DNA of 41,380 nt from positions 1 through 41,380 of the forward strand of contig NIVC01004583.1 of the NCBI GenBank assembly GCA_002269645.1, written 5' to 3'. The stretch comes from Macrostomum lignano (taxonomy: Eukaryota). Made by a program: the position numbers and the translations under genes. The notes under the pieces are model-generated. The model was not told the DNA's origin. It worked only from the letters and a program-made list of their open reading frames with translations, and did no database searches. Below are positions 1 to 14,274 of the stretch, piece after piece (position 1 is the stretch's first letter; each line of letters opens with the position of its first letter).

Positions 1-260
1 CTCTTAAGCATTTCTTTGTCCCAACGCGATTCTTCTCCTCAGGAAAATCTCAGTATATTTAACGTCGTGCCACATGCAGACAGAGTCTAGCTCGTTCACA
101 GGCTCATGCCCAGGATTTGGGTTGTTGTTTCCATCCAGCTGTATTTCAAGTGGATTCAAAGGCCCGCAATATTTATAGCCGGAAGTGTCCAGCCTTTGTT
201 TGGATGAGGAAGCTTTTCTATCAGTCCATGTGAATCTATTTTACCACCAGAGCGCTGCAT
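1..260 (-). pseudogene. Parvovirus-type phospholipase A2 domain protein (frameshifted, truncated by window start)
   Basis: Manual minus-strand translation from the ATG at 260 gives MQRSGGKIDSHGLIEKLPHPNKGWTLP[1-nt shift ~180]GYKYCGPLNPLEIQLDGNNNPNPGHEPVNELDSVCMWHDVKY. This contains the Ca-loop YCGP and the catalytic D..C..HD..Y motif. Further shifts occur near 1-55. Not in the ORF track. Confidence 0.85.
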
Positions 261-289
261 TATTTTATTTTAAAATTTCTTTTTAAAAA

Positions 290-1314
290 ATGACAGATCA
301 GAAACTTAAAAACTCTACTACAGCGACAAAGGATTCTTTGTAGGAAAAAATGCAGTCACCAAACTCGCAGAACTAAGTAAGGAACCAAAAGCTAAAGTAG
401 AAAAGTGGCTCTCTAAGCAGGCTGTCTTTCAAGTCTATTTCCCACCAGTAAAATTTACAAGACCTCACTTTAGCATCTATAAACCTAATGAAGCGCACCA
501 AGCAGATCTTTTGTTTCTCCCAACGACTCAGGCTACAAGTATGCTCTTACAATTATTGACATTGCTTCCAGATATAAGGAAGCTCGCCCACTCAAGACGA
601 AGAAGTCAGAGTTGTTGCCAGCGCACTGCAAGATATTTATAAAAACTCTCCGCTCACATACCCCCAAATCTTTATGACGACCCGGGTAAGGAATTCATGG
701 GTGTAGTGAAATCCCTTATGGAAAAGAAAAACACAGAGATTCGCTATGGCAGAACAAACTTGCACAGAGACCAGGCTTTTGTGGAAAGATTCAATCTAAC
801 TCTAGCCAAGAGACTATTCACTAAGCAGACAGCGCAAGAACTCAAACTGAGTGCGGGCAGTACTATACAAGTGGACAGAGCTCCCCACTGTTATAGAGCA
901 ACTGAACAATGAAGTCACACGCATGACTGGATTGAAACCGTCCCATGCAATTAAACAAGACACTGTCGAACTTAAGGCATCTCATAAAACAGACAACACA
1001 CACAACACACACAACACACACAACACAAAACACACCTCGAAACTACCCTAAGCTTCCAGGAGTTGAATCACCATACATACTGACAAACTCTGAGTTTCTA
1101 CGCTTTTTATATCTACCTGGAGAGCTAGAGAAGACACCAAAAGAAGAGCTACAGATCCATACTTCAGCCTTGATGTACATAAAATAGACAGACATTTTAC
1201 CTCCGACTCGGTGACTATTACTTTTTATCTCAGGCCTTTAACCCTAAATCCCCCACGCGGTCATTCACTAGAGCTGAACTCCTAGTGATACCAGCTGACA
1301 CAGAAATTAATTAA
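290..1314 (+). pseudogene. Retroviral-like (DDE/rve) integrase of the Polinton, about 8 frameshifts
   Basis: Stitched frames give HQADLLFLP..GYKYALTIIDIASRYKEARPLKTKK..DPGKEFMG..HRDQAFVERFNLTLAKRLF..WTELP..LNNEVTRMTGLKP..LYLPGELE..RRATDPYFS..RG.FTRAELLVIPADTE. The D, D and E catalytic motifs are present. ATG 290 follows an A-run; stop 1312-1314. Confidence 0.92.
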
Positions 1315-1330
1315 AATATTAAAATAAAAA

Positions 1331-1779
1331 ATGACAAAGATTGAAACCAGAACCATCAATAAACTCAATAAAATCATTGAATCAAAGAAACCAGGTCTTA
1401 TATCAATTAAAGGTATCAAAGTAAAAATCGATCCCACGCAGCAAATAGTTCAGTGTAATGAACAAAGACACAGCATCACAGATGAAAAGTCAGGAGGAAT
1501 CCTACCATTAGCAGCTCTTATTCCGATCATTGCAGGCGCTGTAAGTGCCGCAGGTGGTGTAGCTGGAGGTGTAGCAACTGCTGTTAAAGCTGGAATGATA
1601 GAGCCCACCAGCTAGAATTGCAAAAGATTGCAAGAGACAAAGGTATAACAATTAAGGCAGGAGAGGTGCCCTGAGATGATCGTGATGATTGTGAGCATGA
1701 AAATTCTGTAAGCAAGTCTGACATTGTCAAAGCCATCATGACACTGCACAATGCTGGGTTTACAATAATGCGGATGTGA
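1331..1779 (+). CDS. Adenovirus protein X (pX/mu precursor)-like virion core protein, probably 2 frameshifts
   Basis: KSGGILPLAALIPIIAGAVSAAGGVAGGVATAVK resembles the adenovirus pX C-terminus (GGILPLLIPLIAAAIGAVPGIASVA). Shifted frames continue NDRAHQLELQKIARDKG and KSDIVKAIMTLHNAGFTIMRM* (TGA 1777-1779). Confidence 0.7.
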
Positions 1780-1901
1780 TGAGGTTTAAAACCCCTTTAT
1801 CCAGCTTCATAAACCTAATACTACTTATAGGATGTAGAAACAGTTCAACTTTTCTATCAGGGTGGTCACCCTCAAAATTTTTTTATATTTTAGAGAAAAA
1901 A

Positions 1902-13086: not shown

Positions 13087-13141
13087 TTTTGGCCTTTTGG
13101 CCTTTTGGCCTTTTTGGCCTTTTGGCCTTTTGGCCTTTTGG
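13087..13141. repeat. (TTTTGGCC)n octamer array, about 6.5 copies
   Basis: Read directly. An inverted copy GGCCAAAA lies at 13070-13077. Confidence 0.95.
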
Positions 13142-13153
13142 TTTTTCGGTTTT

Positions 13154-13396
13154 TTAACGCAACTGCCTAATGATTTCTGCAAAGTTATAGTAGCTGTCGT
13201 AATCTTTTACATAGGTTACTCCATACTTATGAAACCAGTGTCTTTGGAGAGCTAGATTAATATTAGGGACATTGATATCAACGTCGGGCCAATATTTTCT
13301 CATGTACTCGCTGCATTCAAGTTTGCATCGGTACTTGCTCTTGTAATTAGGCTCGTGCGCTTTGTAATAAGAACTCGGAGAGACAACTGGAAACAT
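13154..13396 (-). CDS. Hypothetical 80-aa Polinton protein
   Basis: Intact ORF with the same AATAAAAATG start context as other element genes. Non-repetitive and Tyr-rich. Confidence 0.55.
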   Translation of the reverse strand: MFPVVSPSSYYKAHEPNYKSKYRCKLECSEYMRKYWPDVDINVPNINLALQRHWFHKYGVTYVKDYDSYYNFAEIIRQLR

Positions 13397-13584
13397 TTTT
13401 ATTGAGAATTTAATTTTTTTTCAAAGGGTTAGGACCCTGCGCTGATGATTTAAAGTCTTTGGGATCTGGTTTCGCTTTGCAAATTGAATGTGGGGAGAAG
13501 AATGCAGATTTTTTCCGATTGTTTCGAACATGCTATGGGCGGATGTCGGTGTCAGTGAGCATAACAGGTGTCCTACTGTTATGC

Positions 13585-13825
13585 TCTGATTCTGTCAGGG
13601 ATAATGCTCTGATTCTGTCAGGGATAATATGGATGGATTTAATAGGATTATGTTCGAAGTTTTCGGAGCAAGTGCGACCCCTCCCCTTTTTTCAAGATTC
13701 TGTCAGGGATAATATGGATGGATTTAGGTGGATTATGGAGGACGTTTTGTGAGCGAGTGCGACCCCCCTTTTTTCTGATTCTGTCGGGGATAATATGGAT
13801 GGATTTAGGTGGATTATGGAGGACG
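13585..13825. repeat. Subterminal direct repeats (core GATTCTGTCRGGGATAAT x4; three long units spaced 85 and 81 bp)
   Basis: The core starts at 13588, 13611, 13696 and 13777. The long units share ATGGATGGATTTA..GGATTATG and AGTGCGACCCC. Confidence 0.9.
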
Positions 13826-14274
13826 TGAAAAATTTTGTCCCAGAAGCCCCCTCATGCCTTCTACTAGCCGTTAATACACATGTGAATGTTACAGTAACTA
13901 TATTTTTTTACGTTTTAATTACAAAGTTTAGCCTTTCAACAACAACGCTTAATCTGTTTTGCATACTTGTCCTGTTCATTTACTACAATGAACAACTGTA
14001 TCTGCTTGTAACTAACTGTACTTCGAGATTTGTGTGTCGTCTGAAATGAAAGAGTTGATATTTTTAGCGTGAGTTACAAACGCACAAATATTACAAACTC
14101 AATAAAAGTTTACAACCGCAACAAATTCACGGGGCGCTTTCATTAGGCAAAAATTTCACTTTGCTGAAAAGCACTCTCTTTCACTAGGCCGAAACTTCAC
14201 ATTGCCAAAAAACCATTTTAGCAGCCCCTTTCAATACGCCGAACCTTATGGAAGAGCGTGCTCGGCAATGTGAA

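Follow-up and report, generated by a model that had tools for sequence, protein, structure and literature searches.

The window analysed here, a 41,380-nucleotide stretch of Macrostomum lignano DNA (assembly GCA_002269645.1, contig NIVC01004583.1), carries at positions 1-13865 what is very probably a Polinton (also Maverick or polintovirus) that is endogenous to an animal genome, has a pPolB of the Alpha type and belongs to a large set of similar, recently multiplied copies. The gene set, the folds of the capsid proteins, the right terminus, the multi-copy state of the family and a synonymous bias among its copies are shown by the analysis. The block is gene-dense, with a GC content of 0.41 against 0.48 in the adjoining repeat-rich eukaryotic DNA, and contains 13 genes, eight of named types and five further open reading frames (ORFs). 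All six core Polinton genes are present (pPolB, RVE integrase, cysteine protease, packaging ATPase, double jelly-roll (DJR) major capsid protein (MCP) and single jelly-roll penton), and by gene content the element is a Polinton/Maverick (Polintoviricetes). The family has the coding capacity for replication, integration and capsid assembly.

Gene content and ends of the element

The genes are arranged from left to right as PLA2 (-), integrase (+), pX (+), pPolB (+), protease (+), U1 (-), U2/U3 (-), ATPase (-), U4 (-), U5 (-), MCP (+), penton (+) and U6 (-), followed by a non-coding end. A scan for an A-rich ATG context returned 11 starts, all coinciding with predicted gene starts, and the addition of PLA2 and U5 brought the number to 13. 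The comparison set consisted of 14 IMG/VR loci retrieved via pPolB, including L001 (IMGVR_UViG_3300040794_000071) and L002 (IMGVR_UViG_3300027549_000010). The features are as follows (aa, amino acids; pLDDT and pTM, model confidence scores).

1..260, minus strand: parvovirus-type PLA2, catalytic frame 4-240, PF08398 E 2.9e-8; 3' part cut by the window edge
290..1314 (end approximate), plus strand: RVE integrase in at least four collinear frame segments
1331..1615, plus strand: pX-like core protein, Adeno_PX E 2.7e-7; gene separate from PLA2
1902..5762, plus strand: pPolB split over three frames, the breaks lying near 2.6 and 4.1 kb; collinear abutting tblastn matches
5882..6282, plus strand: adenovirus-type (C5) protease, Peptidase_C5 E 1.7e-4; E 7e-26 to the L002 protease
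6249..7007 (3' end approximate), minus strand: U1, a conserved Polinton protein broken over frames; contains a hydrophobic helical segment
7101..7918, minus strand: U2/U3, coiled-coil protein with an 84-bp internal duplication, repeat 7388-7544
7935..8733, minus strand: A32/FtsK-type packaging ATPase in three frames, Pox_A32 E 6e-4
8768..8936, no strand: 21-bp tandem array of 8 copies between ATPase and U4
8962..9351, minus strand: U4, open, 129 aa, with Gly-x-Gly motifs and an amphipathic stretch
9368..10612, minus strand: U5, open, 414 aa, Gln-rich
10643..11929, plus strand: double jelly-roll MCP, model pLDDT 93.2 and pTM 0.90; PF21738
11952..12815, plus strand: single jelly-roll penton, open, 287 aa, model pLDDT 63.6 (moderate)
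13154..13396, minus strand: U6, open, 80 aa, with an A-rich start
13400..13865 (inner boundary approximate), no strand: putative right terminal inverted repeat (TIR), 85-bp subrepeats 13608-13826, terminus ...CTTCTACT

Pfam gave matches to PLA2, Adeno_PX and Peptidase_C5, and weaker ones to Pox_A32, the DJR-like family (E 1.7e-5), rve (E 0.013) and DNA_pol_B_2 (E 1.5e-4). Homologs in IMG/VR Polinton contigs back the ATPase, protease, integrase, PLA2, MCP and penton. The eight genes and five ORFs listed by the initial annotation, which had been made from the sequence alone, were all recovered, through the start scan, Pfam, the IMG/VR homologs and the MCP and penton folds, and its description of the block as Polinton/adintovirus-like is supported. 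Short tandem arrays occur at 3316-3378 (in pPolB, varying in length in sequencing run X1), at 7388-7544 (in U2) and, between genes, at 5764-5851, 8768-8936 and 13087-13141. An Rfam search gave no match.

The right terminus at 13865 can be read directly from the sequence (...CTTCTACT, a Polinton-type ...CTACT), and its letters are one base off the (ACT)2 motif given for Mavericks in PMC8097293. Because the window begins inside PLA2, the left end, the left TIR and the target-site duplication (TSD) fall outside it, and no partner arm of the right terminal repeat was found within the window, where the left end is not included. The terminal bin, 13301-13775, was the deepest of 30 bins in 4/4 runs mapped. 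The earlier description of the element as near-complete is not confirmed: the window lacks the left end and its TIR, and 7 of the 13 genes are frameshifted.

Replication, integration and entry genes

The pPolB layout comprises a putative terminal-protein (TP) region, a viral OTU (vOTU) domain with Cys and His, an exonuclease, an Endonuclease_7-like insert and the polymerase. The Cys and His motifs of the second frame, which we take, in line with PMC11161782, to be the catalytic pair of the OTU domain, align with the OTU region of the Corynactis coral adintovirus PolB; the first piece aligns weakly with the same protein (E 0.04), and the C-terminal part is 42% identical to it over the whole query. 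Of 8000 candidates scored against the last frame, 5049 reached E<=1e-30. Identity is 42-48% in the 120 relatives listed, among which are records from corals, sponges, crinoids and molluscs as well as the Corynactis adintovirus. The window pPolB fits the TP-vOTU-exonuclease-palm layout of PolB in PMC11161782, and Fig. S2 of PMC8502044 shows the Corynactis adintovirus in its Alpha panel. As judged from its sequence, pPolB is an ordinary Alpha-type enzyme; an assignment to the Beta class was considered and dropped, since the Corynactis adintovirus stands in that Alpha panel. The PF03175 match to pPolB is weak, although PMC8502044 names Alpha the pfam03175 class, and in a tree of 132 sequences pPolB forms a long branch (0.95) with no supported sister.

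A profile of six IMG/VR integrases matches four segments of the window integrase in order (9.5, 30.1, 25.1 and 8.8 bits), the best of 2150 shuffles reaching 5.5 bits. No Chromo match was found by Pfam in the three segments of its fragmented tail, and the L002 and L004 integrases gave weak Chromo matches in the same test. The PLA2 matches the PLA2 ORFs of L001, L002, L004 and L012, and the pX-like protein has a hydrophobic stretch at residues 57-75.

Capsid, packaging and maturation genes

The MCP model was built from a 90-sequence alignment and superimposes on a PBCV-1 capsid chain with Z 24.9 and a root-mean-square deviation (rmsd) of 3.7 over 356 aligned residues; structural ranks 1-16 are all viral DJR capsids. 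An 'Adintovirus sp.' entry was also matched structurally, at rank 14. At the sequence level the protein scores 24.6 bits against PF21738, under the cut-off of 27, and the MCPs of L001, L002 and L012 score 162-545 bits. By tblastn the MCP matched three IMG/VR loci at 21-23% identity (E 1e-11 to 3e-6, the database being small). The MCP profile retrieved chance glucokinase rows only from PDB sequences, tblastn against phages gave no match, and pattern scans of IMG/VR and JGI contigs, which are weak tests, gave no close relative.

The penton model compares with the mavirus penton at Z 9.4 and rmsd 9.7 over 215 aligned residues (Foldseek E 7e-7). Its top six structural rows are viral capsid chains, the mavirus penton being second, and its best structural matches are the mavirus, PBCV-1 and adenovirus vertex proteins, with many minor capsid proteins in BFVD. 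A penton profile found the penton-position ORFs of L001, L002, L006 and L012 at E 1e-13 to 2e-17. At about 12450-12515 there is a low-confidence insertion of about 22 residues that is missing from most of 12 relatives. The jelly-roll fold, which had been set beforehand as a test for MCP and penton, is predicted by the models of both. In the ATPase, Walker A lies in the first frame and Walker B in the second, with abutting matches on the L001 and L002 ATPases.

Going by established Polinton biology, the pPolB polyprotein would prime replication at the inverted ends through its terminal-protein part, which the vOTU would release, and the RVE integrase would insert copies. The MCP and penton would build an icosahedral shell that the ATPase would fill with DNA, the C5 protease would mature small core proteins (pX and perhaps U4 and U5), and PLA2, perhaps together with U1 and U4, would serve membrane crossing.

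ORFs U1-U6

U1 is the sole unknown ORF with a significant homolog, in L001 and L002 (23.6 bits; best of 4860 shuffles 11.1). Its hydrophobic segment (6416-6892, minus strand) resembles ApoL-like clusters of the ESM Atlas at 0.80-0.85, which is under 0.9, and these ApoL-like features are taken only as a lead towards a membrane-active role. U2 and U3 are probably one gene with one break, because the A-rich start is present on the upstream piece only, and no significant homolog was found for them in Pfam or the IMG/VR loci. U4 may be a core or membrane-active protein, and its similarity to the small ORF at the same place in L001 and L002 was not significant by profile. U5 aligns, with likeness at the level of motifs, to a conserved ORF located in relatives just before the U4-like ORF; its profile homology was not significant and it had no Atlas match. 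Homology of U4 and U5 to the same-place ORFs of L001, L002, L004 and L012 looked plausible by eye, failed profile significance and was not retained. Both proteins carry Gly-x-Gly motifs, which we assume to be tied to protease sites. U6 had no Pfam match.

Copy family, age and selection

The family was traced in 24 listed sequencing runs from 7 studies of one organism, of which 20 contain 61-74% of the words sampled from 4000-13900, and in four runs mapped on 1-14240 all 30 bins were covered. The 14710 contigs of run X1 comprised 7709 at >=99%, 5051 at 95-99% and 1950 at 90-95% identity, and depth at the listed element sites was mostly at least ten-fold above that at flank sites 13997-14108 in 4/4 runs. 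Among the substitutions shown, which are the best-supported 40 of 198 rows, 33 lie inside the element and 30 within assigned frames; among these 30 coding differences 17 are synonymous, where 21-30% would be expected (P 2e-5 to 2e-3), and so are 6/6 in the MCP. These observations support a multi-copy and young family with a signal of purifying selection, and the identity classes, depth excess and synonymous bias bear out the initial proposal of a young insertion as regards the family.

It is very unlikely that the element is not integrated but belongs to a free virus or to another organism sequenced alongside, the join to host DNA being a product of assembly. Such a join would account for the step in GC content at the flank, the lack of a listed bridging contig and the fact that the contig stops inside the element; against it, the element was found in 20 runs of one organism dated 2015-2024, the join lies exactly at the Polinton-type terminus, and the many variants and deleted forms are as in a genomic repeat family. 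Joints in run contigs skip 1373-12333, 10968-12094 and 12818-13160, with short sides of 22-29 letters that make them weak. Those skipping 10959 and 1125 bases, present in X1 and X2, point weakly to internally deleted derivatives of the family.

Gene content and the synonymous bias are what speak for the formation of virions, which is unlikely. The related proposal, that the family is a currently infectious virus whose open copies are expressed and form particles, is doubtful to a similar degree. It draws on the full morphogenetic gene set, the exclusively synonymous MCP differences, the many near-identical copies and the full-length frames retained by MCP and penton relatives at 55-78% identity. 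Weighing on the other side are the lack of a close relative in the IMG/VR and JGI pattern scans (again, weak tests), the fact that purifying selection can predate loss of infectivity, and the statement in PMC11131425 that polinton particles had not been directly observed as of that paper.

Several points count against reading the element as one of many recently multiplied endogenous copies. The substitution and indel tests rest on selected, best-supported rows (40/198 and 12/65). The depth of contigs does not give the number of copies, the run contigs do not fully match even the flank, the >=99% class is swollen by short contigs, and the right junction is bridged by no listed contig. Some synonymous substitutions are private to the window, so that it is a distinct variant whose indels could be real, and a stop and a frameshift occur in the flanking LINE as well. 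The TIR pair and TSD form no part of the support.

Frameshifts in the assembled copy

At least 12 frameshifts are distributed across 7 of the 13 genes (PLA2, integrase, pPolB, protease, ATPase, U1 and U2/U3), none of them right of 8.8 kb (P about 0.01 for a uniform spread). Both pPolB and the ATPase are spread over three frames, the integrase has at least four segments and an out-of-frame start, and the start codons of PLA2 and the protease are out of frame with their catalytic parts; the integrase ATG is open for 17 codons and that of the protease for 23. U4, U5, MCP, penton and U6 are open, and no break was demonstrable in pX. The earlier remark that there were no in-frame stops is true of the stitched frames and conceals these frameshifts. 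The insertion cannot be called intact as assembled, with the protease, ATPase, integrase and polymerase all frameshifted, probably in part through assembly error, and it would not count as intact by the features used for Mavericks in PMC8097293 (open core ORFs, TIRs and a 6-bp TSD). Because 7 of its 13 genes are frameshifted, the assembled copy cannot perform the Polinton life cycle.

At four of the breaks (the two in pPolB, the one at the protease start and one of those in the ATPase), contigs of 4/4 runs depart in length from the window, and they make up about 30-100% of the local depth. Most of the family therefore lacks those four breaks, which are either private to this copy or assembly errors. 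Among the best-supported 12 of 65 indel rows, 11 length differences are in one direction, all 12 touch a run of at least two equal bases (background 61%; run-length P 0.018) and all 12 lie left of 9 kb (P 0.005). On balance, most of the breaks are probably errors in the consensus, lying close to a contig end that falls within a repeat, and real decay of this copy has a somewhat smaller, still substantial chance. The wider claim, that the breaks are real and that dead or non-autonomous copies may make up most of the family, is a possibility to be taken seriously but less probable again. It is favoured by the number of frameshifts in the copy, by the internally deleted forms indicated by the joints in X1 and X2, and by the degraded state of most Mavericks in vertebrate genomes (PMC8097293). 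It is opposed by the lack of a nonsense break between abutting pieces, the one-sided indel bias, the clustering of breaks toward the window edge while four long right-hand ORFs are fully open, and the four breaks not shared by the run contigs.

Gene starts

A T-tract followed by AG lies 5-9 bases before the ATG in 5/13 genes of the element and in 0/44 genes of four IMG/VR relatives, with 1.1 genes expected from shuffles.

Upstream of 1902 (+), 7007 (-), 8733 (-), 9351 (-) and 10643 (+): T-tract+AG sites of pPolB, U1, ATPase, U4 and MCP, respectively

Across 12 threshold settings the pattern marked 4-8/13 gene starts against 0-1/28 AT-rich controls, and 4/5 of the strongest T-tract+AG words in the element are located at gene starts. 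The genes are tightly packed with spacers of 16-30 bp, which together with the T-tract+AG pattern suggests trans-splice acceptors. As a reading of sequence pattern this identification is improbable; the sites could equally well be AT-rich motifs of a promoter or terminator. The pattern was chosen after the sequence had been inspected, the genes of one element are not independent, and 0/5 sites carry CAG, which is reported as the top trans-splice motif in one flatworm (PMC8629364). A search of literature listings found no paper on trans-splicing of Polinton genes. No run is on record as RNA among the listed runs containing the element; run X14, RNA by guess, also covers the non-coding ends and flank and is therefore uninformative on transcription. 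None of the loose ends listed for X14 (a small part of 2254 rows from four runs) falls at the acceptor-like sites, the MCP site being excluded as a repeat. Two spacers, 261-289 (PLA2/integrase) and 10613-10642 (U5/MCP), are similar AT-rich stretches of about 30 bp between divergent starts and are too short for ordinary promoters.

A divergent capsid lineage and its relation to known elements

A word-indexed search returned nine MCP relatives (7 at 71-78% and 2 at 43-44%), and 537 representatives reached E<=0.001 in a profile search. In a tree of 110 sequences, composed of matches of 355-650 aa and four locus MCPs, the window MCP sits in nested clades of 7 and then 10 sequences, with support of 1.0 each and stems of about 0.5, at distances of 3.2-4.4 from the MCPs of L001, L002 and L012. 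Close MCP and penton relatives (P0001/P0293, P0014/P0295, P0002 and P0018) come from source contigs of equal size (2695; 3702), which hints that the clade retains MCP and penton as neighbours. No exchange of the capsid module is claimed, since pPolB is likewise long-branched without a supported sister; long branches in both proteins point to a divergent lineage rather than a demonstrated swap. What appears new from these sequence comparisons is a capsid lineage on a long branch, for which few relatives have been sampled, together with a rearranged gene order that differs from that of L001, L002, L004 and L012.

L001 and L002 share with the window the gene set, separate PLA2 and pX genes, the U1 homolog and PolB followed by the protease, and in L002 the PLA2 also adjoins the integrase. 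They differ in order: theirs is one co-oriented block (ATPase, penton, pX, U1-like ORF, two ORFs, MCP, PolB, protease), whereas the window has three blocks on alternating strands, with MCP adjoining penton. The MCP of the window lies 3.2-3.7 from those of L001 and L002 in the tree, and these lie 1.3 from each other.

The Alpha-PolB adintoviruses of PMC8502044 resemble the element in their OTU domain, integrase, protease, ATPase, hexon, penton, PLA2 and pX. The module of the Alpha/Mayetiola class has a single PLA2X gene; in the window pX is a separate gene and the 3' part of PLA2 is cut by the edge. In addition, no chromodomain was detected in the fragmented integrase tail, and the MCP is very divergent. 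The PolB has the N-terminal OTU-like domain of the adintovirus definition in PMC11071296. The definition further calls for a C-terminal chromodomain on the integrase and for a hexon recognised in both directions by plain BLASTp against reference adintoviruses; with the integrase tail fragmented, the element is labelled adintovirus-like and is not filed as a member.

Vertebrate Mavericks (PMC8097293) are similar in core genes, size (12.7-24.6 kb) and purifying selection on capsid genes, and their end motif, 5'-(AGT)2//(ACT)2-3', is close to the window end; they have two inward-facing modules of fixed content, whereas the window has a different order and a PLA2 gene. For flatworms, 748 integrase-linked pPolB1 copies are recorded in 8/73 Platyhelminthes genomes (PMC10748475 Supplementary Table 2), planarian polintons are piRNA-silenced (PMC8532177) and a Maverick expansion is reported in Dugesia (10.64898/2025.12.11.693146); the available parts of these three records do not describe capsid genes or gene order. 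Flatworm Polintons are not mentioned in the available part of PMC10468722, and flatworm terms were not found in that of the PMC8502044 supplement, which is not conclusive. The literature search found no paper on Polintons of Macrostomum and none on Platyhelminthes Polinton capsids.

Flanking host DNA

An animal host fits the predicted content of the flank (WSC exon, ligand-gated channel, SAXO and LINE), which points to no particular phylum.

16232-16846, plus strand: WSC-domain exon, E 3e-15
19984-24403, minus strand: non-LTR retrotransposon with AP endonuclease, reverse transcriptase and RNase H; one in-frame stop and one frameshift
32088-33291, plus strand: neurotransmitter-gated ion channel exons, with a transmembrane region
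38356-38883 and 39621-40133, plus strand: exons of a SAXO1/2 axonemal microtubule stabiliser

Host minisatellites at 24562-25104 (21 bp), 26737-26974 (21/42), 27351-28335 (31) and 31624-31878 (16) yield spurious long ORFs.

Implications

Animals hold 20,702 integrase-linked pPolB1 copies in 960 genomes (10.1101/2023.08.22.554363), and since Polintons with the same gene set are common in animals, flatworms included, the element by itself makes little difference. What it contributes is a new gene order and a divergent capsid lineage of which few relatives have been sampled. It would matter more if trans-splicing proved to occur at the acceptor-like gene starts, or if the family were active in a laboratory animal, as animal polinton particles are still without direct observation. 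That both hold, with a still-replicating, high-copy polintovirus making particles and its genes adapted to host spliced-leader trans-splicing, is highly improbable; if true, it would provide a tractable system for animal polinton virions and, going by the literature search, an unreported expression strategy in a much-sequenced animal (7 studies).

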